Of a DNA stretch of 64,000 bases, positions 3,581-58,344 are shown one piece after another. Every line of letters starts with the position of its first letter. The stretch's first letter is position 1. This DNA is from Candidatus Pacearchaeota archaeon (GTDB lineage Archaea > Nanobdellota > Nanobdellia > Pacearchaeales > GW2011-AR1), in assembly GCA_023133415.1 (NCBI GenBank), contig JAGLWM010000004.1, positions 3,574 to 67,573 on the forward strand. Reading direction: 5' to 3'. The notes under the pieces were generated by a model, which did not search any database, was not told where the DNA came from, and worked only from the letters and a program-made list of their open reading frames with translations. The position numbers and the translations under genes were made by a program.

Positions 3581-4395
3581 GTGCTTCGCACAGTAATGGG
3601 CAATGGGCAATGGGCAATGGGCATGTTGCGCTCTGTAGAGCGCTTGGAAGAAAGAGAGGACAGGTAACGATTTTTATTATTGTGGGGATTGTGATTGTTG
3701 TGGGGATTATTGCTTTTGCTTTTCTAATGCGGGATGTTGATATTGGACCAAAGCCTGATATTGATCCAAAGAATATTGTTCGAAGTTGTGTTAATGATTT
3801 GGTTAAAGATTCTATTGATAAGATGCTTATGAATGGTGGGGAAATTTTGCCGACGAGGGCTATTTCTTATGAGGGAGCTGAATGGAATTATTTATGTTAT
3901 CAGGCAGATTTTTATCAAGGATGTTATAATATTCATCCTATGTTAGAGATACAGATTGAGAAGGAAATTGAAAAGGATAGTTTGAGTGGAGTGCAGAATT
4001 GTTTTGATGTTATGAGGCAGGATCTTGAAAATCGTGGATTTAGTGTTGGGGGTGGAGCGACTGATTATTCCATTGATTTGCTGCCTGGATATGTTGATGT
4101 CAAGCTAGAAAAAAGGGTTGAAATTTCTAAGGAGGGGAGTTCGCAGGTTTTTGATGATTTTGGGTTTGAGGTGGTTTCGCCGATTTATGATTTGGTTCGG
4201 GTGGCTCGGCTTATTGTGAATGATGAGTCGCAGTTTTGTAATTTTGAGTATAATGGTTATATGCTTTTATATCCGAAATATGATATTAGGAGAATTGATT
4301 ATCGAGATAGTAAGATTTATCGGTTGATTGATCGGAGGAGTGGGGATGAGTTTCGATTTGCTATAAGGAGCTGTGCATTTGCGCCTGGAATATGA
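3565..4395 (+). CDS. pilin-like protein with class III signal peptide (RKRGQ + hydrophobic helix)
   Basis: ..GRKRGQVTIFIIVGIVIVVGIIAFAFL. Paralog of 8687..9430. The real start may be ATG 3610. The 5' end overlaps hairpin and aatgggc x3 repeat modules. Confidence 0.65.
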   Translation: MGAEMSASHSNGQWAMGNGHVALCRALGRKRGQVTIFIIVGIVIVVGIIAFAFLMRDVDIGPKPDIDPKNIVRSCVNDLVKDSIDKMLMNGGEILPTRAISYEGAEWNYLCYQADFYQGCYNIHPMLEIQIEKEIEKDSLSGVQNCFDVMRQDLENRGFSVGGGATDYSIDLLPGYVDVKLEKRVEISKEGSSQVFDDFGFEVVSPIYDLVRVARLIVNDESQFCNFEYNGYMLLYPKYDIRRIDYRDSKIYRLIDRRSGDEFRFAIRSCAFAPGI

Positions 4396-11350: not shown

Positions 11351-11370
11351 AAGGGAATGCTGTATTGTTT

Positions 11371-19424: not shown

Positions 19425-19588
19425 AAAAGCTTTGCTTTTTTACCGGTGGTCGGGGGTCGGTGGTCGGTAGTCGGGATGACTTGGGCAACTTGCGGGGGTC
19501 GGGAGTTGGGGGTCGTGAGTCGTGGGTCGTGAGTCGTGGGTTGGGGGTCGTGAGTCGTGGGTTGGGGGTCGGGGGGAAGGGGGGGCAG
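19425..19588 (+). repeat. G-rich GGTCGG-type modular repeat (hairpin aaaaagctttgcttttt, 26-nt core, gacttgggcaacttg module, gtcgtgagtcgtgg subrepeats, G runs)
   Basis: Core ggtcgggggtcggtggtcggtagtcgg at 19448-19473 is identical to 57612-57637. Open in frame with the downstream CDS (track ORF 19418..20074). Confidence 0.85.
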
Positions 19589-20074: not shown

Positions 20075-20604
20075 AATTGAGAAATGAAATAAATAATATG
20101 AAAAATAAAATAAATAGAAAGGGGCAGCAGGAGATTGTGGGGTTTGTTTTGATTGTGGTCTTGGTGATGGTTGGGCTGATGGTTTTTTTGGTGATTTCGG
20201 TTCGGGATGTTACGGAGACGGAAGATAGTCTTGAGGTTTTGAATATGATTGGTGTTTTGATGAGGACGACTAGTGAGTGCGCGATTGTTTATGAGCCGGA
20301 TTATGATGATTTTGAGGATTTGTTTAAGAGTTGTCATAAAAATGATCGGTGTAGTAATTTGGATAGGTCTGCTTGTGATTATTTGAACGAGAGTTTTGGT
20401 GATGTTGTTGATGCTCTGATGAGAAGTGAGGCGGATGTTGAGGCTTGGGATGTTGAGTTTTTTGTTAAGGATGGAGGTGAGATGCTTGGTTTTTGGGATT
20501 CGGAATCTGGTAATTGCACGGGACGAGTTGAGGGGGCGCAGAGGAGTATAGTTTCTGGAGGAGAGAGTTTGGTTGTTAGAATGAGGGTCTGTCGTGGGAG
20601 TTAG
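20071..20604 (+). CDS. pilin-like protein with class III signal peptide (NRKGQQ)
   Basis: ..KINRKGQQEIVGFVLIVVLVMVGLMVFLVI. ATGA overlap with the upstream gene. Confidence 0.7.
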   Translation: MKLRNEINNMKNKINRKGQQEIVGFVLIVVLVMVGLMVFLVISVRDVTETEDSLEVLNMIGVLMRTTSECAIVYEPDYDDFEDLFKSCHKNDRCSNLDRSACDYLNESFGDVVDALMRSEADVEAWDVEFFVKDGGEMLGFWDSESGNCTGRVEGAQRSIVSGGESLVVRMRVCRGS

Positions 20605-20658
20605 GGGTCGGTAGTTGGGGGTGGGTAGTCGGTAGTCGGTGACTTGTTCGGCTTTGCT
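20604..20658 (+). repeat. G-rich GGTCGG repeat + gacttgttcggctttgct module
   Basis: aggggtcggtagttgggggtgggtagtcggtagtcggtgacttgttcggctttgct. Confidence 0.75.
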
Positions 20659-25098: not shown

Positions 25099-25189
25099 TT
25101 TTAGGATGAGAAGGATAGAATCGGGGGTCGGTGCTCGGTAGTCGGAGGTCGGGAGACTTGGGCAACTAATTTTTAGGATGAGAAGGATA
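25099..25189 (+). mobile_element. 53-bp G-rich GGTCGG element flanked by a 19-bp direct duplication that contains the start codon
   Basis: ttttaggatgagaaggata at 25099-25117 and 25171-25189. Between them: gaatcgggggtcggtgctcggtagtcggaggtcgggagacttgggcaactaat. Confidence 0.7.
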
Positions 25190-25807
25190 AAGAGTGTTGT
25201 GGATAAGGAAAGCGTTCAGCGGCGGAATAGTATGATTATGGGAGTTGTGATGGTTGGTATTTTGGTTTTTGCGAGTTTGGGATATTCTTTGATGAGTGCG
25301 GATGGGGAGGATGAGAATGTTGTTAGGGAGTTGGGTTTTGATTTTGTTCGGGATGGTGGACTTTGGAAGGTTGAGATTGCTGGGGGAATTTTTGGTTTTC
25401 AGTATTTGCCTTCGGAGGTTGATGATATTGATGTTAATTTGACGAAAGAGTTGGGTGAATATTCTGGGGAAGTTTTGTATTTTGTGAATCCGAATGAGGG
25501 CGTGGGTGAGGTTTTGAACAATCTTGGACGCTATATTTTGAGGTACCAGGAATCTTGCTTGCAGCAAGATTCTGGGGAGTCGAGGGTCGGGGGTCGGGGG
25601 TCGGATGACTTGGGCAACTTGACTAGTAAGGGGAGTGAATATGTTTGTGAGGGGGATTTGCCGGTGAAAGATTGTAGTAGTAATTTGATTATTTTTGAAA
25701 GTGGGAATGAGACGAGGGTTTATGGAGATGGGGGTTGTGTTCATATTGTTGGGGATAGTATTCGGGGCGTCGATGCTTTTTTATATGAGGTTTTGAATGT
25801 AAAGTGA
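25178..25807 (+). CDS. membrane-anchored hypothetical protein carrying an in-frame G-rich repeat insertion
   Basis: N-terminal TM MIMGVVMVGILVFASLGY. Nucleotides 25575-25625 (ESRVGGRGSDDLGNLT) are a copy of the GGTCGG/gacttgggcaacttg element. Confidence 0.6.
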   Translation: MRRIKSVVDKESVQRRNSMIMGVVMVGILVFASLGYSLMSADGEDENVVRELGFDFVRDGGLWKVEIAGGIFGFQYLPSEVDDIDVNLTKELGEYSGEVLYFVNPNEGVGEVLNNLGRYILRYQESCLQQDSGESRVGGRGSDDLGNLTSKGSEYVCEGDLPVKDCSSNLIIFESGNETRVYGDGGCVHIVGDSIRGVDAFLYEVLNVK

Positions 25808-27416: not shown

Positions 27417-29072
27417 TTATGCGGATGGCGTTCTTTTGGAAATTTTTACTATTAACACCAGGAAGATTAAAACCAGAAGTGCCACTATTCCGATGACTGT
27501 GTAGAATATCACATTGTTCATTTCTGAGGCAAATCCGAAGATTCCTGGTTTCTCTGTGATGTTTACGGAGATTGTTTGCTCATGCGAGGAGCCGTCTACT
27601 ATTGTGTTAATTTTGAATGATTGTGATCCTGCTTCCATAGGAGATAGTGTGATTAAGACTTCTTGAAATTCTCCTTTTTCAATCGAAGTAGTTTGCGGGT
27701 TGATGCTTACCATGCTTGCCCATGAGTCGAAATCAGAAGCCGATATTATGAAGTCATTGGTTTTTCCGTTGTTCGTTATCTTGGCTTTTACTACTAAGTC
27801 TTGACCTACTTGAGCCGAGGATTCTAAGTTTGCTGTAATTGTCGGGGTTGGAGCTTTGCATCCTAATATATTTAGTCTGATTGATGTGTCGGAAGTTTCT
27901 TCGTCGTATGACAATGGGTCTTCGTCGTCTTCGTCGTCATCCCAGTCAAAACTTACTATTACATCTAGAGTGTATTTTTCTTTGCTTAGTTCTGATGGAA
28001 TATTTATGAAGAATGTTATCACTTCTCTGTCGCCGTTATCTAGGTCGTCGATTATTATGTATTCATCAATTCCCATTTCTGAATCATAAAGATTTACTAG
28101 GATTTTTTCTTCGTCATCTTCTCCTAGATTGTAGACTGGTATTACAATTTCTAGGTTTTGTTGACCGCAGTATGTGTTGATTATGTTTTCGAATTCCGAG
28201 CCTCTTACTACTATTGATTCTTCGTAATCTACTGATTCAACTGTGAACTCAAAGTAGTAGTCTCCGCTGTCTATTTCAGATGCGCATTGGTTTGCTTCAT
28301 TACCATCTTCATAGGCCATTATGTACATATAGTATGTTCCGTCGTCTAGGTCTGAAGGTAATTCATCAATTATGAATGTTACTGTTTCTTGATCTCCGTC
28401 TTTTAATTTTCCTATGTCATCTAGCACTTCGTCGTCTATATCGAAGTCATTTGTTATATCGTTTCCGTCGTCTTCTATTTTATTGTCTAGTATCATTATC
28501 ATCACTTCTACATCTTCGATGTCGTCATCATTGTCTGTATTTTCTACTTCTACTTGGATTTCGATTTGGTCTAGGTATTGCCATTCGTCGTCTTTGCCTT
28601 CTCCGTTATTGTTTACATCGAAGTCTGTGATTTCTAGTTTGCCTTTTTCAGTATAGCCTTCTAGTTCGCAGAGGGTGTCGGATGTTGGAGTTACCTGAAA
28701 GTTAACCTGTTCTGATATGACATACAGTTCAGTTAAAGTTGAGGCATCATATACATGTGCTTTTATTGTGACAGAAGTCCCACTTGTGGGAATTGTAAGG
28801 TTGAATCCTGAAACTGTATGACTATTCCCTGCGGTATAATTATTCGCCTCGGCAAGACTTGTGATTCTTTCGGGATTTGTAGTAGTCCAGTTAACATAAA
28901 CTTCATTAGTTTCGTTAGATGTAAGATTAACTGTAAATGGAATAATGTCTCCAGCTTCACCAATTAATGTTCCTCCAATAATATCGAGTTGGAACTCTGT
29001 TGCACTTGTAATTCCAAAGCTTAATAATAAAACTACAAGAATTCCTAAGGATGCAAACATCTTTTTTGCCAT
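27417..29072 (-). CDS. acidic cell-surface protein with signal peptide and C-terminal TM + basic tail (candidate archaeosortase substrate)
   Basis: MAKKMFASLGILVVLLLSFGITSA. D/E-rich beta-rich modules and many N-x-T/S sites. C-terminus KPGIFGFASEMNNVIFYTVIGIVALLVLIFLVLIVKISKR. Confidence 0.7.
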   Translation of the reverse strand: MAKKMFASLGILVVLLLSFGITSATEFQLDIIGGTLIGEAGDIIPFTVNLTSNETNEVYVNWTTTNPERITSLAEANNYTAGNSHTVSGFNLTIPTSGTSVTIKAHVYDASTLTELYVISEQVNFQVTPTSDTLCELEGYTEKGKLEITDFDVNNNGEGKDDEWQYLDQIEIQVEVENTDNDDDIEDVEVMIMILDNKIEDDGNDITNDFDIDDEVLDDIGKLKDGDQETVTFIIDELPSDLDDGTYYMYIMAYEDGNEANQCASEIDSGDYYFEFTVESVDYEESIVVRGSEFENIINTYCGQQNLEIVIPVYNLGEDDEEKILVNLYDSEMGIDEYIIIDDLDNGDREVITFFINIPSELSKEKYTLDVIVSFDWDDDEDDEDPLSYDEETSDTSIRLNILGCKAPTPTITANLESSAQVGQDLVVKAKITNNGKTNDFIISASDFDSWASMVSINPQTTSIEKGEFQEVLITLSPMEAGSQSFKINTIVDGSSHEQTISVNITEKPGIFGFASEMNNVIFYTVIGIVALLVLIFLVLIVKISKRTPSA

Positions 29073-31779: not shown

Positions 31780-31822
31780 AAAATAATATAGGGGAAGTGG
31801 TTTTTAAGTTTTTAAGAATTTG

Positions 31823-32062
31823 GAATCGTTCGATTTCGTCAGGCTCTTTCTTTTTTAGAAAAAAAGAAATTCCCTGGAAGTAGAAAAAACTATAATTCCA
31901 ATGCTTCGCATTGGTTTTGACGAAATCTTTTTAGAATCGTTCGATTTCGTCAGGCTTTTTCTTTTTTAGAAAAAAAGAAATTCCCTGGAAGTAGAAAAAA
32001 CTATAATTCCAATGCTTCGCATTGGTTTTGACGAAATCTTTTTAGAATCGTTCGATTTCGTC
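31823..32062 (-). repeat. 111-bp tandem repeat (2 full copies + partial) that includes the last about 20 nt and stop codon of sepF
   Basis: gaatcgttcgatttcgtc recurs at 31823, 31934 and 32045. The unit contains tttctttttt-aga-aaaaaagaaa and ccaatgc-ttc-gcattgg hairpins, closed by tttcgtca/tgacgaaa. Confidence 0.9.
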
Positions 32063-32434
32063 GGATCTGGGTTTTGGGACTTCTGTTACGCCTTTTTGGA
32101 TGTCGAAAACCTTTGATGGTGTAGCGATGATGGTATTCTCTCCGAAGCCTGCGATTTTTCCTTCTAACGCTTCGACTGTTTTCTTGATTTTGGAGATTGC
32201 TCTTTTTAATTCGATTACGTCTTTAGATTTTAGGGTTCTGATGTCTATTACTGCGATTGTGTAGCCTTCTCGCAAAGAGTTTAAGATTGGGTTGATGTCT
32301 TCGTAAACTTTTAGGGTGAATGTTTTGATTAGGATTTTGGAATCGGATTTTTCTTGCTCTAAGTCAATTTCGATGAAATCTGGGGAGATTTCTTCGTTGT
32401 TTCCCATCATTTTTTTGAATATGTCGAAAGCCAT
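32042..32434 (-). CDS. sepF: cell division protein SepF
   Basis: ..LIKTFTLKVYEDINPILNSLREGYTIAVIDIRTLKSKDVIELKRAISKIKKTVEALEGKIAGFGENTIIATP is a DUF552/SepF pattern. Confidence 0.75.
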   Translation of the reverse strand: MAFDIFKKMMGNNEEISPDFIEIDLEQEKSDSKILIKTFTLKVYEDINPILNSLREGYTIAVIDIRTLKSKDVIELKRAISKIKKTVEALEGKIAGFGENTIIATPSKVFDIQKGVTEVPKPRSDEIERF

Positions 32435-34755: not shown

Positions 34756-34756
34756 G

Positions 34757-34838
34757 ATTTCTTTCTTTTTAGAAAAAATAAATTTCTCGCAAGTAGAAAA
34801 ACTTTTCTTCCAAAACTTCGTTTTGATTTAATTCCATG
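34757..34838 (-). mobile_element. 82-bp hairpin element between duplicated CATG sites at the rpl11 start; encodes a 22-codon uORF
   Basis: CATG at 34753-34756 and 34835-34838. TATA (rc of gtttaaaaga, 34858-34867) lies about 25 nt upstream of the distal ATG. uORF MELNQNEVLEEKFFYLREIYFF*, with its stop 13 nt before the rpl11 ATG. Confidence 0.7.
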
Positions 34839-35546: not shown

Positions 35547-35547
35547 G

Positions 35548-35629
35548 ATTTCTTTCTTTTTAGAAAAAAGAAATTTCTCGCAAGTAGAAAAACTTTTCTT
35601 CCAAAACTTCGTTTTGATTTAATTCCATG
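35548..35629 (-). mobile_element. second copy of the start-codon element (spt5)
   Basis: CATG at 35544-35547 and 35626-35629. TATA-like tcataaaaat at 35646-35655. uORF MELNQNEVLEEKFFYLREISFF*. Confidence 0.7.
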
Positions 35630-37041: not shown

Positions 37042-37042
37042 G

Positions 37043-37125
37043 GATTTCTTTCTCTTTAGAAAAGAGAAATTTCTCGCAAGTAGAGAAACTTAAATTCCAA
37101 AACTGCGTTTTGATTTAATTCCATG
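37043..37125 (-). mobile_element. third copy of the start-codon element (ftsZ), with compensatory change in the TAGA-loop hairpin
   Basis: CATG at 37039-37042 and 37122-37125. TATA tttataatta at 37146-37155 lies 26 nt upstream of the distal ATG. uORF MELNQNAVLEFKFLYLREISLF*. Confidence 0.7.
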
Positions 37126-38949: not shown

Positions 38950-39004
38950 ATTTTAGGAAATCAAGTTTTTAAGAATTTATATATTAAATTAATAGAGTTA
39001 TTTT

Positions 39005-39251
39005 TTCTTTTCTTCAACAACTTCGCTCTCTACTTTCAATCCTAATATTTCCTCGAATTTTGGTGAGAACATTTTTATGAATTGCTCGGCTTCTTTTGGT
39101 ACTTTGAATGTGATTGTTTTTTCTTTGACTTCGTAGTCAAATATCTGTTGGAATAAAAAATCTTGAAGTGCGTTGATTTTTTCTTTTTGGTCGGTTATGA
39201 TTTTATTGATTTTGAATGAACATGCATATGGAGATAATCTTTGTGACCACT
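39005..39251 (-). pseudogene. chimeric gene fragment: FKBP C-terminal tail fused to a pyrF N-terminal scrap
   Basis: 39005-39214 is identical by eye to 43805-44014 (3' end of the FKBP gene). 39215-39251 matches 42755-42791. Confidence 0.8.
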
Positions 39252-42514: not shown

Positions 42515-42883
42515 TTGATTTTGCGATATTACTTTTTTGGCTTTTTCTTTTATTCGACTGCTTTTGTTTCGATTTTTAGATTAAGTATTTCTTCGAATTT
42601 TGGCGAGAACATTTTTATGAATTGCTCGGCTTCTTTTGGTACTTTGAATGTGATTGTCTTTTTTTCTATCTCGAAATTGAAAACTTGTTGGAATAAGAAA
42701 TCTTGGAGTGCGTTAATTTTTTCTTTTTGGTCGGTTACGATTTTATTAATTTTGAATGAACCTGTATATGGAGATAATCTTTGTGACCACTCTAGTGCTT
42801 GTTCTACACTATCGGTATCTAATGCTATACAGACCCTTTCTCTTGCTAGTTTTTCTTGTGGTGTTAGTCATCTTAGGTTAAAA
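42515..42883 (-). pseudogene. frameshifted pyrF-N-terminus / FKBP-C-terminus chimeric remnant
   Basis: ATG at 42883 gives MTNTTRKTSKRKGLYSIRYR*. The +1 frame reads ..VCIALDTDSVEQALEWSQRLSPYTGSFKINKIVTDQKEKINALQDFLFQQVF..FIKMFSPKFEEIL... The plus-strand track ORF 42515..42973 is a shadow. Confidence 0.7.
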
Positions 42884-43788: not shown

Positions 43789-44442
43789 TCATTCTTCCGG
43801 CTTCTTCTTTTCTTCAACAACTTCGCTCTCTACTTTCAATCCTAATATTTCCTCGAATTTTGGTGAGAACATTTTTATGAATTGCTCGGCTTCTTTTGGT
43901 ACTTTGAATGTGATTGTTTTTTCTTTGACTTCGTAGTCAAATATCTGTTGGAATAAAAAATCTTGAAGTGCGTTGATTTTTTCTTTTTGGTCGGTTATGA
44001 TTTTATTGATTTTGTAGGTGTAGGTTATGGGTTTTCCGGCTAGTGGGTTATTGAAGTCGACAAGTGTTCGGCCTCTGTCTGATGATAGGATTTTTACGAT
44101 TTGCCCGTCGAGGTTTAGCTGCATGCCTCTAACTGGGTTGATTTTTTGTTCGTGGAAATGTTTTGTTGGGATCATTCTGACTAATTGGGGGTTTCTTTTT
44201 CCGAAGGCTTCTTCTGATTTTAGATTGACCTCATAATCTTTTCCGACTTCTTTTCCAGTTAGATTGTTGTCGAAACCTTTTGGGAGCATTTTGTGTCCGA
44301 CTGATAGAATGAGTGGTTTGATTCCTTCTGTTTTGAAGTTGGCGGATTTTGCGTCGGCTTTTATATTTGTGTCAAAGATTTCATTTGTATCTGTGATTTT
44401 TCCGGTGAATTCAATTTCTATGAAATCGTTTTTGTTTATCAT
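43789..44442 (-). CDS. FKBP-type peptidyl-prolyl cis-trans isomerase (long archaeal/SlyD-like type)
   Basis: DFIEIEFTGKITDTNEIFDTN.., LPKGFDNNLTGKEVGKDYEVNL..AFGKRNPQLV. Confidence 0.8.
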   Translation of the reverse strand: MINKNDFIEIEFTGKITDTNEIFDTNIKADAKSANFKTEGIKPLILSVGHKMLPKGFDNNLTGKEVGKDYEVNLKSEEAFGKRNPQLVRMIPTKHFHEQKINPVRGMQLNLDGQIVKILSSDRGRTLVDFNNPLAGKPITYTYKINKIITDQKEKINALQDFLFQQIFDYEVKEKTITFKVPKEAEQFIKMFSPKFEEILGLKVESEVVEEKKKPEE

Positions 44443-48214: not shown

Positions 48215-48568
48215 TTATAAAAATATTATTCCGTCTTTTGTCAAGGCGGTGAATCTGACTCCGACTGGGAGGTTTAGTAGTGCGGATTGGAGCGCCATAT
48301 GTTCTTTGCCGTTGCCTGATGCGATTGATAGTGCGACTTCTAGCCCATCGAATTTGCCTTTAAGTTTTGTTGAAAATTCTTTTTTGAGTTGAACTAGGGA
48401 TTTGTTGGGATCGAATTCTATGAAGTCGAAGGGTTCGTCGTGGACTGTGAATTCTTTTGCGAAGGGTGGACCGACTACGATGACTTTTTCCCATTCGCCT
48501 TTTTGGATTAGGCCGGAGATTTGTCCCCATGTTCCTTTGCCGGTCGATAGGAGTGCGATTAGTTCCAT
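48215..48568 (-). CDS. conserved hypothetical protein
   Basis: 117-aa ORF, MELIALLSTGKGTWGQISGL... TATA-like atttaataatt lies about 27 nt upstream. Confidence 0.55.
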   Translation of the reverse strand: MELIALLSTGKGTWGQISGLIQKGEWEKVIVVGPPFAKEFTVHDEPFDFIEFDPNKSLVQLKKEFSTKLKGKFDGLEVALSIASGNGKEHMALQSALLNLPVGVRFTALTKDGIIFL

Positions 48569-48680: not shown

Positions 48681-48768
48681 GGCAGGCTCCCTTTCTTTAG
48701 AAAAGAAAGGTTCCCTGGAATCAAAGAAACTAAGTTTCTGGAACTCCGTTCCAACATTGGAGCGCCGA
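48681..48768 (+). repeat. divergent copy of the TAGA-loop hairpin element (candidate small structured RNA)
   Basis: cctttcttt-aga-aaagaaagg, agaaac-taa-gtttct and ggaac-tcc-gttcc hairpins between complementary ggctcc / ggagc(g)cc. TATA gttttataaag lies at 48634-48644. Confidence 0.4.
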
Positions 48769-52561: not shown

Positions 52562-53149
52562 ATGAAGAGGAGAAGTATTTTGAAGAATAAGGTTGTCGCA
52601 ATCTTTTTAATAGTGGTTTTGTTGGTTTTGTTTACGCTGTTTGTGATGAAGATGGTTGATAATATTGATGGAAAGACGAGGGTGAAGTTGGAGACGAATC
52701 ATGGGGATATTGTGATTGAGTTGTATCGGGATATGCCGGTGACTGCTGGGAATTTTGAGAGGTTGGTTCGTGAGGGTATTTATGATGGTGTGATTTTTCA
52801 TCGGGTGATTTCTGGTTTTATGATTCAGGGTGGGGATCCGACTGGAACTGGGATGGGAGATCCAAAGATCCCTAAGATTAAGGATGAGTTTGTTGCTGGA
52901 CATTCTAATGTTCGTGGGACGATTTCGATGGCTAATGCTGGACCGAATACCGGGTCGAGTCAGTTTTTTATTAATTTGGCTGATAATAGTTTTTTGGATT
53001 ACGATAAGCAGCCTTTGGGCAGTAAGCATCCGGTGTTTGGTGAGGTTGTTAAGGGGATGGATGTTGTGGATGTGATTGCTGGTGTTGCAACGGGGGCTGG
53101 GGATCGGCCGATTGAGGATGTTGTGATTTTAAAGGCTGTAATTATTTAA
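52562..53149 (+). CDS. ppiB: cyclophilin-type peptidyl-prolyl isomerase with N-terminal membrane anchor
   Basis: TNHGDIVIELYRDMPVTAGNFERLVREGIYDGVIFHRVISGFMIQGGDP. TATA attttataaa lies 26 nt upstream of ATG 52562. Confidence 0.85.
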   Translation: MKRRSILKNKVVAIFLIVVLLVLFTLFVMKMVDNIDGKTRVKLETNHGDIVIELYRDMPVTAGNFERLVREGIYDGVIFHRVISGFMIQGGDPTGTGMGDPKIPKIKDEFVAGHSNVRGTISMANAGPNTGSSQFFINLADNSFLDYDKQPLGSKHPVFGEVVKGMDVVDVIAGVATGAGDRPIEDVVILKAVII

Positions 53150-54614
53150 TTTCAATCGGCTTGAATTCTTCTAGAAATCTTAGGGCGTCTTTCATTTTTG
53201 TTTTGGATTCTGTATAAAGCGTTAGGAGCGGTTCGCCTTTTTTGACTTTGCTAAGGTGTCTATGCAGATAAACTCCAGCGGAAATTGTTTCTGGAGTTCC
53301 GAGGATTCGACAAAGTGAATTGATTCCTTTATTGCTTATGTAAATTATCTCTCCTGATTTTTTTGCGGGAATGATTTTTTCGAATTTTGCTAGTTTCAAT
53401 TTTGATACTTTTTTGTCGAAGTTCTTTTTCCCGTTTTGCGCATTGATTATTTCTTTGAATTTTTCGTATGCTTTTCCTGAAAAAAAAGCATCCTCAACTT
53501 TTTTCTTTGCGTTTTTTATTCCGCAAAGTTTTGTTAGTTCTGTTGCAAGATAGAGTGATTTTTGTTTTAAGTCTTCGGGACCGTTTCCCTGTAAGACTGC
53601 TAAGACATCTAGCATTTCTAGAACTGGGCCGATTCCGTTTCCGACGGGTTGGTCTCCAGAGGTGTAAACAACTTTCATTTTAAGTTTGAAGCGTTTTGCT
53701 ATTTTGTAGAATTTTCTTCCTAATCGTTGCGCGCGCGCCAGATCTCTTACTTTTGCGCCATGTCCATATGGGATGTCGATTAAGATATGCTTTGCGCCAG
53801 TTGCTATTTTTTTGGACATAATTGAGGCTAGAAGTTGTGGTTCAATGTCGAGATTTAGGAGTCGTTCGACTTGGATAATCTTGTCGTCTGAGGGAGCCAG
53901 TCCTAGAGAGCCACCCCATGCTAAACAGGCGTTTTGTTTTTCAACCATTTTGGTTATTTTTTTTAGGGAGAGTTTTACGTCTGCAATTGTTTCTATTACG
54001 TCGGCTGTTCCGGAGGCTGAGGTTATTGCTCTCGAAGAGGTTTTTGGAAGTTTGATTCCGATACTTGCGCATATCGCTATTATGATTGGAGTGGTTCTGT
54101 TTCCGGCGACACCTCCAATACAATGTTTGTTTGCCACATATTTTCCTTTGAATTTTAGCTTCGATCCTGTTTTGACCATTGCTTTTGTTAGATTGATTGT
54201 TTCTTCGAATTCCATCCCGTTTAGTTTTTGTGCCGCTGTGAAGAATGCGATTTCGGCTTCAGTTAAATTATTGTGGACGATTTCCGAGATGAGGAAGTTT
54301 AGATCTTTTTGAGAGAGCGTCTTGCCATTTAGTTTTTTCTTGATTAGAAAGGATGCATCAGATATCTCGGAAGATGAGACTTCAACTAATGATCCACTTT
54401 TTAGTTTTATAATTCGGTTCAATTCGTGAGAAACCCCGATTTCGTTTTGTTTTACCATTTTTGAAAATATATCAACGATTGCATAGATTTTTTTACTATT
54501 TGTTATAGCTACTCTGTCGTCCACAAAAACATTCATCTTTATTGCAGTTTTTTCGTTTAGAAAGACTACAGGTTTGCCTGCATGCCAGTTAAAGTTTTTT
54601 ATTTTTAGTTTCAT
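53142..54614 (-). CDS. deoA: AMP phosphorylase / thymidine phosphorylase family (archaeal long form)
   Basis: N-terminal extra domain MKLKIKNFNWHAGKPVVFLNEKTA.., HCIGGVAGNRTTPII, GGSLGLAPSDD. Confidence 0.8.
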   Translation of the reverse strand: MKLKIKNFNWHAGKPVVFLNEKTAIKMNVFVDDRVAITNSKKIYAIVDIFSKMVKQNEIGVSHELNRIIKLKSGSLVEVSSSEISDASFLIKKKLNGKTLSQKDLNFLISEIVHNNLTEAEIAFFTAAQKLNGMEFEETINLTKAMVKTGSKLKFKGKYVANKHCIGGVAGNRTTPIIIAICASIGIKLPKTSSRAITSASGTADVIETIADVKLSLKKITKMVEKQNACLAWGGSLGLAPSDDKIIQVERLLNLDIEPQLLASIMSKKIATGAKHILIDIPYGHGAKVRDLARAQRLGRKFYKIAKRFKLKMKVVYTSGDQPVGNGIGPVLEMLDVLAVLQGNGPEDLKQKSLYLATELTKLCGIKNAKKKVEDAFFSGKAYEKFKEIINAQNGKKNFDKKVSKLKLAKFEKIIPAKKSGEIIYISNKGINSLCRILGTPETISAGVYLHRHLSKVKKGEPLLTLYTESKTKMKDALRFLEEFKPIEIK

Positions 54615-54615
54615 T

Positions 54616-54834
54616 GATTTCTTTCTTTTTTAGGCAGTTCTGCACACCTCAAATTGTTTGGCAGTTCTGCACACCTCAAATTGCGGAATGCTGGGGCGAG
54701 TATTGGGGCGAATTTTGGGGCGAATTTTGGGGCCAAAAAAGAAATTTCTCGCCGCCGCTCGACACACCCCTCTTGCTGGGGCGAGTAGAAAAAACTTCTT
54801 TTCCAAAACTATGTTTTGATTTAATTCTATCATT
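54616..54834 (-). mobile_element. expanded copy of the start-codon element with nested insertions (27-nt direct repeat x2, T4G4-like 12-mer repeats); flanked by CATT duplication
   Basis: CATT at 54612-54615 and 54831-54834. Element ends gatttctttcttttttag.. and ..ccaaaactatgttttgatttaattc. Track ORF 54630..54845 (MKKRMIELNQNIVLEKKFF..) stays open through the inserts and stops 15 nt before the deoA ATG. Confidence 0.65.
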
Positions 54835-54841
54835 CTTTTTT

Positions 54842-55861
54842 TCACTGTCTATTGAATAGATCTTTTAGTTTACCGTGTCGATAAAATTCTATTATGATTA
54901 ATGTATATGCAATAACAAGTGGACCTAGGACTATACCTGCGATTCCGAAGAAAAAGAGTCCTCCTATTGTTCCGATTAGACTTAGAGCGATTGGGAGAGT
55001 GGATTTTTTCGAGAGAATGTATGGTCGTAAAAGATTATCAATTGACGAAACGAATAGCATCCCGTAAAGTAAAAGAAATATCCCTGCGAATATTTGGTTT
55101 GTAATTAAGAGAAAGATGCTTATTGGAAGCCAGATGAGCCACGAGCCTAGAACTGGAATTATTGATATGATTGCTGCTATAAATGTTAGGACTAGTGCAT
55201 TTGGTATGCCTAGTAAAAATAGTCCTAGCCCTAAGGCTAAACCTTGGATTATTCCAATGAGGACTTGTCCAATGACGATTGCATCTGTTATTCTTCGGAA
55301 CTCTTGTAGAAATCTTGTTTCTGTTGCTTTGGAGAATGGTGAGAGGGATCTTATATAGGATGCTAGATCGTTGGCGTCCCGTGTCGCAAAATAGAATGTA
55401 AAGAGAAATACTACGAACTGGAAGGCTAGGGATGGGATATCTAGTAGAAGTTTTTTGAATTGATTTAGGAATATTAAAAAAGATTGTCCGATGATGTTAT
55501 CTATGTTTATTGCTAGGGTTGAAGCTATGTCAGTTTTGATGAAGTTGTTGATTATTTCTGTGAGATTTAGATTTTGAATTATGACGTAAATTTTGAATGC
55601 TTGATTGACTATGATTGGGACGAAATATATTATTGGAATTGCGACTATTAAGATAAGACCTAAGACTAGGATGAAGACTGCGAGATTTTTATTTTTGACG
55701 ATTTTTTGAATTGATTTGTAGACTGGAATGAAAACGTAGGCAAAAAGAAGACCTAAGATGATTGGCATAATAATCGGTTTTAGGATGAAGAATGTTAGAG
55801 TGAATATTCCAAGGATTAGAAATATTACTATCACTCTCTTTATGTCTTTTGACTCTATCAT
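54842..55861 (-). CDS. AI-2E family transporter (PerM/UPF0118)
   Basis: 339-aa polytopic protein with a typical AI-2E pattern: ..FLQEFRRITDAIVIGQVLIGIIQGLALGLGL.. Confidence 0.7.
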   Translation of the reverse strand: MIESKDIKRVIVIFLILGIFTLTFFILKPIIMPIILGLLFAYVFIPVYKSIQKIVKNKNLAVFILVLGLILIVAIPIIYFVPIIVNQAFKIYVIIQNLNLTEIINNFIKTDIASTLAINIDNIIGQSFLIFLNQFKKLLLDIPSLAFQFVVFLFTFYFATRDANDLASYIRSLSPFSKATETRFLQEFRRITDAIVIGQVLIGIIQGLALGLGLFLLGIPNALVLTFIAAIISIIPVLGSWLIWLPISIFLLITNQIFAGIFLLLYGMLFVSSIDNLLRPYILSKKSTLPIALSLIGTIGGLFFFGIAGIVLGPLVIAYTLIIIEFYRHGKLKDLFNRQ

Positions 55862-57253: not shown

Positions 57254-57706
57254 TTAAAGTTTTGCTTTAGAATTAAACCAGTTTAATTTATCCCATTTGT
57301 ATAATGTTTTGATATGGCATTCTGCTTTTTGTGCGTCGGATTTTGATTCGCATTGTTTTGTTCGGAGTAGTTTTTTGAATTTTTTGTTTCGGACATATTT
57401 ACTACCTTTACCTTCGGCGTGTATTTTCATTCGTCTGTCTAGGTCGTTTGTGACGCCGGTATAGAAAGAGCCGTCTTGGCATTCAAGGATGTAGACGAAC
57501 CAAGGAGTTGGTGCTTGGTGGTTGGGAATTGGGACCGCTCGGCACACCCCAAATACTCTTGGTAGTTCTGCACACCCCAAATTGCAGGGTATTGGGGCGA
57601 GTTCTGGGGCGGGTCGGGGGTCGGTGGTCGGTAGTCGGTGATTTGTTCGGCACTTGTTAGTTTTAAAAATCATTAATTTCCTTTCTGATGTTGGAACTTC
57701 TACCAT
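57254..57706 (-). CDS. GIY-YIG nuclease-family protein whose N-terminal roughly 65 aa are encoded by repeat modules
   Basis: WFVYILECQDGSFYTGVTNDLDRRMKIHAEGKGSKYV. There is no ATG/GTG/TTG between the repeats and the domain. ATG 57706 overlaps the upstream stop (TAATG). Confidence 0.65.
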   Translation of the reverse strand: MVEVPTSERKLMIFKTNKCRTNHRLPTTDPRPAPELAPIPCNLGCAELPRVFGVCRAVPIPNHQAPTPWFVYILECQDGSFYTGVTNDLDRRMKIHAEGKGSKYVRNKKFKKLLRTKQCESKSDAQKAECHIKTLYKWDKLNWFNSKAKL

Positions 57707-58344
57707 TAGAGATTTAGATTTTTTTGTTTAGCGCAGGCGGCGCAGAGGAGGGCGGTGTCTTTTAGGGACATATAATATCGGTTGCCTTCTTCGAGGATGT
57801 TGTTGAATTTTTCCCATCCTTTTTCTATTGTTAGTTTTCCTGCAATGACTTCTTCTGGGACTTTTGCTGCTTTTTCTAGAAGATCTGTTCTGAATTTGAA
57901 CATGTTATAGTGATAGAGATTTGGTTTTGCGGATTTGGAAATTTTTTTTAAACAGAGGTAACATTGTTTTTGAGTCATTAGGAGCTCTTGTTCACGGATT
58001 GCCCATTGTAGTTGGAAATCGGCATCTTGGATTAAATGTTTAAAGTTTCCGATTCCTCCAAGACGTTTAAATGTAAGTGTGATTTTGTTTTCTGGAGTTA
58101 TTATGATTTCTCCTATTCTTTTTGAATATCTCCAGATTGGGTATTTTTGTTCTTTTCGTGGAGTTAGTGTTAATTTGCCTATTCGATAGCCTTTTGCGCC
58201 TGTTTTAATTTTGCCGATTATTTTGTCTTTTTTTCTTTGAATAGCTTTTTCTTTTTTTTCAGACTTTTTTTTGAGTGCGGTTTTTTCTTTTTTTGAGACA
58301 TAGCCTTTTTCGCCAGGGAGGAGTTGGGGAGTTTTTATGGTCAT
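57706..58344 (-). CDS. hypothetical basic protein with CxxC..CxxC (possible Zn-binding/HNH-like) C-terminal region
   Basis: CYLC..NLYHYN..CAAC. Confidence 0.5.
   Translation of the reverse strand: MTIKTPQLLPGEKGYVSKKEKTALKKKSEKKEKAIQRKKDKIIGKIKTGAKGYRIGKLTLTPRKEQKYPIWRYSKRIGEIIITPENKITLTFKRLGGIGNFKHLIQDADFQLQWAIREQELLMTQKQCYLCLKKISKSAKPNLYHYNMFKFRTDLLEKAAKVPEEVIAGKLTIEKGWEKFNNILEEGNRYYMSLKDTALLCAACAKQKNLNL

Follow-up and report, generated by a model that had tools for sequence, protein, structure and literature searches.

What is the long, repeat-filled stretch that separates deoA from the gene ahead of it in a Candidatus Pacearchaeota archaeon, and does the reading frame that crosses it, ending just before the deoA start codon, do anything for the gene? 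The locus lies in a 64,000-nucleotide (nt) segment of contig JAGLWM010000004.1 (the whole stretch of DNA analyzed, hereafter the window), and a sequence-only reading had described it as an expanded copy of a short start-codon element, in which nested insertions keep an upstream open reading frame (uORF) open and its stop position fixed. The deoA copy is a recently inserted, lineage-specific and swollen member of a repeat family of DPANN archaea, and the main value of the locus lies in this family, not in the single expanded copy. With some reserve, we favor the view that the family is a mobile start-codon element resembling the interspersed repetitive units of mycobacteria (MIRUs), which would be kept harmless by a relay from the end of the uORF, by termination and reinitiation, to the start of the gene.

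Gene sense at deoA is the minus strand of the window, and coordinates of open reading frames (ORFs) and of the element are window positions. In gene sense, the locus is composed as follows:

54842..55861, minus strand: perM, a transporter of the AI-2E family (Pfam PF01594, E = 2e-40)
54842..54844, minus strand: stop codon TGA of perM (ORF list)
54831..54833, minus strand: ATG of the uORF of the deoA copy, starting 9 nt past the perM stop codon
54615..54826, minus strand: body of the expanded copy, which spans 212 nt, begins with AATTAAATC and ends with GAAAGAAATCA (nhmmer, covariance model and alignment to the base element)
54804..54818, minus strand: hairpin H1, CAAAAC-ATA-GTTTTG (helix 1 of the alignment folds)
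54784..54795, minus strand: 5' arm of hairpin H2 and beginning of its loop (GTTTTTTCTACT), with the T6 run that marks the 81/82-nt subfamily
54753..54783, minus strand: insertion 1, 31 nt, CGCCCCAGCAAGAGGGGTGTGTCGAGCGGCG in the sense direction, a GC-rich double-hairpin module in the H2 loop
54735..54752, minus strand: GCGAGAAATTTCTTTTTT, the H2 3' arm followed by the 5' arm of hairpin H3, an exact 18-mer common to the Spt5 copy
54633..54734, minus strand: insertion 2, 102 nt, in the H3 loop (alignment to the base element)
54699..54734, minus strand: 12-mer array within insertion 2
54660..54698, minus strand: 39-nt module within insertion 2
54633..54659, minus strand: 27-nt tandem duplicate of the 3' part of the 39-nt module
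54630..54632, minus strand: uORF stop codon TAA, from the conserved H3 loop
54615..54629, minus strand: H3 3' arm, 15 purine-rich nt (AAAAAGAAAGAAATCA) that separate the uORF stop from the deoA ATG, without a GGAGG-type Shine-Dalgarno motif
53142..54614, minus strand: deoA, AMP/thymidine phosphorylase of 490 amino acids (aa), with its ATG at 54612-54614

The copy has both ends of the family, namely the 5' end AATTAAATC with H1 and the 3' arm of H3 (GAAAGAAATC) directly abutting the gene ATG, as well as its three hairpins, and the added sequence is confined to the H2 and H3 loops. Its 5' part is matched by nhmmer with E = 4.7e-11, the covariance model scores it at 44 bits (E about 2e-6), and its ends recur within the window, with four matches to the 25-mer end CCAAAACTATGTTTTGATTTAATTC (0.00 expected) and four to the 18-mer end (0.92 expected). 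The sequence-only reading was right about this anatomy, an expanded start-codon element with GC-rich material in two hairpin loops and with ends matching the short copies, and also about the two points of insertion, as what it placed after ttctcgc is the 31-nt insertion in the H2 loop, and what it placed in a TAGA loop is the 102-nt insertion in the H3 loop. The extra sequence amounts to about 131-134 nt (212 nt against 78-82 nt) instead of the about 140 nt proposed. The flanks, given as CATT/CATT on the plus strand, are indeed AATG in gene sense, and the start codon of deoA is the right-hand copy of an apparently duplicated ATGA.

The 12-mers and the 27-nt direct repeat were likewise recovered: Tandem Repeats Finder reports a 12-mer array of 3.5 copies at 54692-54733 with 93% matches, and the repeat of 27-nt period has identical cores of 24-25 nt. 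Two loops are filled, but the nest supposed in the H3 loop is no deep one, being a single 39-nt module extended by tandem duplication in periods of 12 and 27 nt, each divisible by three. The ORF listed at 54630..54845 exists; from the ATG at 54831-54833 the uORF has 67 codons and is open up to its TAA, which ends 15 nt ahead of the deoA ATG, and a GTG at 54843-54845, overlapping the perM stop, is an alternative start. Length and N-terminus of deoA agree with those of hundreds of homologues, and homologues of 490-492 aa cover the whole protein. A second assembly of this organism, a Logan contig, reaches from the H1 loop into deoA and agrees there at every position (100% identity); the expansion thus did not arise from the error of a single assembler. 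Extra fold stability of the expanded copy was considered and discarded (z = -0.01 against shuffles).

How far does the family extend? Copies were sought with an exact pattern of the 5' part, in one scan of genome contigs and one of metagenome contigs, and a covariance model then recovered further copies that the exact pattern had missed; loci of relatives and contigs carrying copies or compared sites are designated by L-numbers (e.g., L009, L043). More than 50 distinct copies were found in DPANN metagenome-assembled genomes and metagenome contigs. In the pattern scans, beside chance matches in bacteria, copies came from DPANN archaea only, and the records bearing them are labeled Pacearchaeota, Woesearchaeota, Nanoarchaeota or 'archaeon'. 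The base element is AT-rich and 78-82 nt long, it is in gene sense in every copy abutting a gene, and nearly all copies abut an ATG. Short copies in the window are the following:

34756..34837, minus strand: copy at the start of ribosomal protein L11, 78 nt plus a 5' ATGG
35547..35628, minus strand: copy at the start of Spt5
37042..37124, minus strand: copy at the start of FtsZ, 79 nt

In gene sense, the consensus reads ATG R AATTAAAT [CAAAAC NNN GTTTTG] GAA NNN AAG, continuing with [TTTYTC TACTTGC GAGAAA] [TTTCTYTTT TCT AAARAGAAA] GAAATC (A) ATG (hairpins in brackets). In an alignment of 55 copies, which was fitted to the covariance model and in which H1 was forced invariant for the pattern-found copies, the three helices are paired in 98.4% of cells, against 49-73% when the partners are slid by 1-3 columns; compensatory changes on both sides affect 12 of 21 pairs, and the observed values were reached by none of 500 shuffles. 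RNAalifold also gives the helices of the element. Covarying H1 stems are found in model-found or diverged copies (CAGAGC/GCTCTG, CAATC/GATTG, AAATTC/GAATTT), and diverged relatives within the window have CCAATGC/GCATTGG and GGAAC/GTTCC. At one position of the H2 stem, 32 copies have a U-G pair and 22 a C-G pair, which fits pairing on the sense strand only. All large inserts aligned by the model sit in the H2 or H3 loop, and runs of T5-T7 characterize the 't' variants, the 'c' variants having none.

A scan of the whole window against Rfam at gathering scores returned tRNAs only, and the best matches of a permissive scan of 54560-54900 had E = 2.8-8, adding nothing to the tRNAs. A tRNA-like cloverleaf, closed by the pairing of two CAUGG, appeared in the folds of two copies; the TATGA/AATGA flanks present in many copies are unable to pair, and the cloverleaf was thus not accepted as a property of the family. 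Any resemblance of the motif CCGAGCGG to the D-arm of tRNA-Ser/Leu is not claimed.

Does the element move? Filled and empty sites were compared at these genes:

deoA: filled in the window; empty in L101, L102/L103, L104, L105 and L108
Spt5: filled in the window, L017, L053, L059, L073 and L098; empty in L009, where the same promoter region is present
L11: filled in the window and L009; empty in L073, L059 and L098; a 21-nt 3' remnant in L017
FtsZ: filled in the window; empty in L073 and L053
Gene 48215..48568: filled in L010, L062 and L100; empty in the window

The copy at deoA is lineage-specific, because the perM-deoA junction is empty in five relatives, with the two genes 1-17 nt apart and deoA 79-85% identical (the gap of one of them has a GGAGG motif). 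An intermediate, unexpanded copy at deoA was sought and is absent, all five relatives being empty. Each of the five filled/empty comparisons shows an ATGR on either side of the element, namely ATGA at deoA and ATGG elsewhere. As judged by eye, about one copy in four has unlike fourth bases on its two sides, and the element may carry its own ATG instead of duplicating its target; a target duplication of at least 5 nt was rejected on the fifth base, also judged by eye, which is inconsistent between the sides. Tandem arrays of two or three units occur, in which neighbors share one ATGR. Since sites are filled or empty in different genomes, the element is mobile, and the ATGR on its two sides is probably a duplicated one.

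Orthologous copies are 89-98% identical, against 65-86% in the next 150 nt of coding sequence and 73-88% in the 60 nt upstream. The L11 and Spt5 copies of the window are 99% identical to each other, against 94-95% to orthologous copies in other genomes, and the H1 loop GCA is common to all four copies seen from assembly SMBSF31, in a loop that varies between genomes. This likeness of copies within a genome seems to point to turnover or gene conversion. Viral carriers were looked for in two scans of viral contigs, which gave no copy.

Single loci add further observations. In L017 (1392-1437), the L11 gene keeps the last 21 nt of the element (TTTTCTAAAAAGAAAGAAATC) between TATA box and ATG, which looks like a deletion leftover restoring near-leaderless spacing. 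The sole full copy without a following ATG is at L081 (2085-2173); it lacks the 5' ATG, carries an in-frame TAG, and is followed by a sequence that by eye is tRNA-like, on the other strand. L108, a relative with an empty site, has a gene for a reverse transcriptase (RVT_1) at 3928-4250, some 1.2 kb downstream of deoA.

Where does the left-hand ATG of the element stand relative to the promoter? At window genes that come first in their operon, a TTTAWAAA box ends mostly 20-24 nt ahead of the ATG, most often 21 nt (for example at 27417..29072, 32042..32434, 43789..44442, 54842..55861 and 57706..58344). This distance corresponds to the geometry of leaderless archaeal transcripts, and indicates that such transcripts are probably the rule in the window genome. 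In copies of the element, the distance is kept to the uORF ATG, not to the gene ATG: of the 10 strongest TATA boxes, 9 lie 21-22 nt upstream from the uORF ATG, counted from the end of the box. For the window copies, the box ends 20 nt upstream of it at L11 and 21 nt at FtsZ, and the best box of the Spt5 copy, a weaker one, ends about 16-19 nt upstream. The spacing from TATA box to first ATG is equal in filled and empty promoters of Spt5, L11 and FtsZ, and in promoter-proximal copies the uORF ATG occupies the place of the original start codon. The remaining copies are intra-operonic, with a uORF ATG that follows or overlaps the stop of the upstream gene, as at deoA.

The stretch ahead of the gene ATG (AAAGAGAAAGAAATC) has no GGAGG, a motif used by other genes of the genome. 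In a Sulfolobus cell-free system, as described in PMC7531240, leaders without a Shine-Dalgarno motif were not translated, and leaderless mRNAs were. A promoter inside the element, serving the gene's own ATG, was rejected, no consistent TATA-like box being seen by eye ~21 nt upstream. The ORF list probably misplaces the starts at the TTG or GTG codons at 11365, 14152, 38949 and 52547, where the true ATG would lie a few codons further downstream.

Is the uORF kept open across the family? Distances are given here as +n if the uORF stop lies n nt before the gene ATG, and as negative if it lies past it. The uORF ends between +15 and -17 nt of the gene ATG in 42 of the 47 gene-abutting copies found by pattern: in most at +13 to +15, at the TAA of the H3 loop, in one at +8, in a few at -10 to -17, and in the 81/82-nt subfamily, where single-base insertions put the loop TAA out of frame, at -4 (as an ATGA overlap). 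Ends of these kinds account for about 90% of copies, and premature stops are found in ~10% of the copies that have a start codon. The distance from stop to ATG, which had been thought to be fixed, thus ranges over several values between copies; the TAA belongs to the conserved H3 loop, and what can vary is therefore the reading frame and not where the stop lies. The uORF peptide begins with M(E/K)LNQN in most copies.

For the expanded copies, it was asked how many of the three frames entering the first insert end at most 20 nt from the gene ATG. Of the 16 expanded copies, 11 have a uORF that does so, where 6.0 would be expected (Poisson-binomial P = 0.005); the first 13 taken alone give 10 of 13 (P = 8e-4). 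In a twelfth expanded copy, L083-1128, the frame runs on into the next unit, to which the copy is fused, and its end lies 14 nt ahead of the real gene. The expanded copy of L043, of 190 nt with AT-rich inserts, keeps its frame open over 58 codons, up to a stop 13 nt ahead of the next ATG. Insertions after the 5' ATG comprise whole codons (ATG-AAA-AAA-TTA in L049, ATG-ATA-GAA in the window copy), and in L022 the start has moved by one base, which a 1-nt deletion further downstream offsets. Where the 5' start codon is missing, the frame is broken in every case (3 of 3 copies), as opposed to 6 of the 51 copies that keep it, a count that includes model-found copies (Fisher P = 0.003). Stops scattered at random through the expanded copies were not seen.

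A course of events consistent with these findings can be proposed. The element would insert at a start codon, duplicating ATGR on both sides, and the left ATG would remain where translation arrives, either at a leaderless 5' end, 20-22 nt past the TATA box, or just past an upstream stop; the deoA copy would be of the second kind, its left AUG being used by coupling to perM. This ATG would open a short frame, along which the ribosome would read through H2 and the 5' arm of H3, until the uORF terminates in the H3 loop 13-15 nt before the gene ATG, or overlaps it as ATGA. Terminating ribosomes would then reinitiate at the gene ATG, itself devoid of a Shine-Dalgarno motif, and translation of the uORF would melt H3, whose 3' arm adjoins this ATG. 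GC-rich double-hairpin modules, present elsewhere in the genomes, would settle in the loops of H2 and of H3, the H3 module would in part be duplicated in steps of 12 and 27 nt, and such additions would persist mainly where the relay frame stays open.

Several observations weigh against this account. The expanded copies have modules in common and cannot count as independent, which makes the P values optimistic. In L043 (second unit), L069 (second unit), L085, L095 and L005-1916 a premature stop lies 42-115 nt upstream, and L084-682 runs on to a stop some 40 nt ahead of the gene ATG. L071 and L077-9719 have no 5' ATG yet precede apparently intact genes, and the relay is therefore not indispensable. 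In the window copy, two of the three frames would qualify (TAA at +15, ATGA at -4), and the GC-rich inserts are open in nearly every frame. The base uORF is equalled by 34% of dinucleotide shuffles, and stop-codon depletion of the base element, tried as evidence for coding, is not significant (P = 0.06). Regarding the family as a whole, the exact 5' pattern inflates apparent conservation by ascertainment, and the high conservation of the element could also mean a host function. Pfam recognizes no transposase among 20 window proteins, and terminal inverted repeats are absent from the element, the search for them giving only the internal hairpin H3. The proposal that translation through the element is under selection is thus partly supported: the excess of kept frames across the family (11 of 16) argues for frame selection, and the window copy, with two qualifying frames, proves little by itself.

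Could the uORF be merely incidental? The element would then be mobile, its left ATG a duplicated target, and the gene would use direct internal initiation at its own ATG, the frame being open since the element and its GC-rich inserts happen to be stop-poor. The shuffles, the openness of the inserts in nearly all frames, the two frames that qualify at the window copy, and the intact-looking genes behind broken or absent uORFs in L071, L077-9719 and L085 all favor such an explanation. It accounts less well for expanded copies that keep the frame above chance, for in-frame indels and a compensated frameshift at the 5' boundary, for the 58 open codons of the L043 copy despite its AT-rich inserts, for the loss of the frame together with the 5' start codon, and for a gene ATG without a Shine-Dalgarno motif in a genome where other genes use GGAGG. 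We consider this explanation a serious one, if somewhat unlikely.

Another possibility, which we hold to be unlikely, retains the relay and gives it to the host: the element would be a portable translational control cassette that DPANN archaea keep on core genes such as Spt5, L11, S3Ae and FtsZ. A leaderless 5' AUG would load the uORF, whose translation would open H3 and license reinitiation, and the conserved H2 loop, together with the GC-rich modules and their invariant G-U pair, would be putative factor-binding sites tuning the relay. Near-identity across genera would in that case reflect function, not recent spread.

Improbable in our view is a cis-regulatory RNA leader of the host (a structured uORF attenuator or sensor), inherited vertically or domesticated after an old spread, and not currently mobile. 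In its favor, the element is far more conserved than its flanks and has covarying hairpins with a recurrent G-U pair possible on the sense strand only; the half-sites TTTCTC / GAGAAA / TTTCTC / GAGAAA permit alternative pairings, many hosts are genes of translation, transcription or division (L11, Spt5, S3Ae, FtsZ), and the same gene is occupied in several genera. Such a leader is difficult to reconcile with the patchy presence and absence among close relatives at every site examined, with tandem arrays, with unrelated hosts such as deoA, with the L081 copy beside a tRNA-like sequence and without a gene ATG, with paralogous copies within a genome more alike than orthologous ones, and with the lack of an Rfam match. 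A small non-coding RNA gene, a terminator or insulator, or a functional uORF peptide is very improbable: three stable hairpins, the T5-T7 runs of 't' variants, which could terminate archaeal RNA polymerase, and the M(E/K)LNQN start of most peptides would suit them, but nucleotide-exact abutment to start codons is needless for an RNA gene or a terminator, 'c' variants have no T runs, Rfam gives no match for an RNA gene, and the residues after codon 15 are replaced wholesale by inserts, with two frames in use (e.g., L022, L077).

Where does the inserted material come from? The H2 insert of the window copy is nearly equal to the H3 insert of the L082 copy, and its 39-nt H3 module matches the H2 insert of that same copy; related modules, for example TGCCTCAACAGAGGTACGCCATTTGGGTGG, sit in the same two loops of copies in other genomes. 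Seven of eight modules fold as two adjacent hairpins. The first stem is always YGCC...GGUR, with G-U as its second pair (by eye), and the second shows compensatory variants (CGCC/GGUG, CGCU/AGCG, CACU/AGUG). Modules are also found outside the element, on the same strand, where the sequence-only reading had pointed to 57561-57610:

57535..57611, minus strand: GC-rich modules outside the element, in frame within the N-terminal extension of a GIY-YIG protein

At 57559-57611 lies a module homologous to the H3 module of the window copy. Module material of about 190 nt stands here in frame with the GIY-YIG domain, between that domain and an ATG that overlaps the stop of the upstream gene; in the gene (57490-57706, minus strand) it forms, with a (GGTCGGT)n array, an N-terminal extension of 68 residues. 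The orthologue in L010 (1342..1590), of 82 aa, starts 3 nt past the upstream stop and has no such insert, and an in-frame GTG within the modules could be the real start of the GIY-YIG gene. Similar hairpins occur in intergenic DNA of other loci: modules of the form TGCCCCAAcc...gtgaGGGTA lie outside the element in L005 (4144-5733), L017 (7026-7260), L082 (748) and L092 (3501), and some of them adjoin CTGAG(A/T)T repeats. From their recurrence at different sites and in different loops, the modules may be mobile.

How does the proposed relay element compare with known systems? MIRUs are short, seemingly mobile repeats at start codons, oriented with the gene and often in tandem, with an internal ORF coupled to it (Supply et al. 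1997, as cited in PMC12548453). The DPANN element likewise is a short repeat at start codons, co-oriented with the gene, single or in tandem, its internal ORF ends near the gene start codon (the coupling itself being proposed here), filled and empty orthologous sites speak for its mobility, and the 81/82-nt subfamily has the same overlap of -4 (ATGA). Its hosts, in contrast, are archaea (Candidatus Pacearchaeota, DPANN only) and not actinobacteria, and no sequence relationship is apparent, as judged by AT-richness and hosts without an alignment to the MIRU consensus. Most copies leave a gap of 13-15 nt in place of an overlap, many are on leaderless genes, where the ATG of the element would become a 5'-terminal AUG, and there are three covarying hairpins, with loops accepting nested GC-rich modules.

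In Haloferax, the efficiency of termination-reinitiation falls with spacing and persists to ~30-40 nt (Huber et al. 2019, 2023, via PMC12548453; also cited in PMC7531240). The uORF spacings of -17 to +15 are compatible with reinitiation, since they are within this coupling range, and the step proposed from uORF stop to gene ATG would be the same mechanism. That work, however, deals with pairs of normal genes, of which the second often has a Shine-Dalgarno motif ahead of it, whereas the first frame here is a repeat-borne one of 22 codons, and the gene after it has no such motif.

[quoted passage not shown] Terminal inverted repeats, as in MITEs, are missing, and both groups differ by the sense-only orientation and start-codon restriction of the DPANN element, and by the lack of a transposase among the 20 window proteins. 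The modules for their part resemble the GC clusters and double-hairpin elements of the AT-rich mitochondrial genomes of fungi and the palindromic elements of Rickettsia: they are short GC-rich hairpin pairs scattered over an AT-rich genome, and can sit in frames without closing them, as in the uORF and at the N-terminus of the GIY-YIG protein. They are not known to be related to these in sequence. Literature searches by topic and by literal sequence gave no description of such an element, which is not proof of absence.

The window contains other repeats. Two tandem 111-nt units at 31819-32040 (minus strand) are a diverged relative of the element, with CCAATGC-GAA-GCATTGG as H1; each duplicates the final seven codons of gene 32042..32434 together with its TAA. 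They stand after a stop codon and not at a start, and an ATG within H1 opens a frame of 18 codons ending at the TAA of the H3 loop. A second diverged relative, at 48683-48759 (minus strand) and ~115 nt upstream of gene 48215..48568, has hairpins GGAAC-GGA-GTTCC, AGAAAC-TTA-GTTTCT and CTTTCTTT-TCTA-AAGAAAG. Intergenic arrays of G-rich heptamers (GGTCGGT/GGTCGTG) are found at 19445-19580, 20596-20640, 25123-25167, 25575-25619 and 57612-57640, the one at 19.4 kb following a hairpin and a T-run inside a probably spurious ORF. The hairpin GCGAAGC-TTT-GCTTCGC followed by (GGTTTTT)n constitutes a separate intergenic repeat family of this AT-rich genome (21020-21111, 24786-24874, 26516-26607, 27264-27369, 30800-30891). 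Finally, a 213-nt direct repeat has three copies, at 39002-39214, 42542-42754 and 43802-44014, two of them 100% identical and one 83%.

Taken together, our best reading is a MIRU-like element that would rely on termination-reinitiation and be new for archaea; if true, it would be the first archaeal counterpart of the MIRU strategy. For annotation, gene callers will misplace starts or overlook such uORFs, and GC-rich modules yield spurious N-terminal extensions, such as that of the GIY-YIG gene; presence or absence of the element could also serve as a strain marker in Pacearchaeota populations. The element would further provide a compact natural cassette for testing archaeal reinitiation. For the biology of these archaea, it would mean that uncultivated DPANN use leaderless initiation together with termination-reinitiation on essential, highly expressed genes, and that a selfish repeat can survive at the most sensitive spot of a gene, its start codon, by means of a relay frame of its own.

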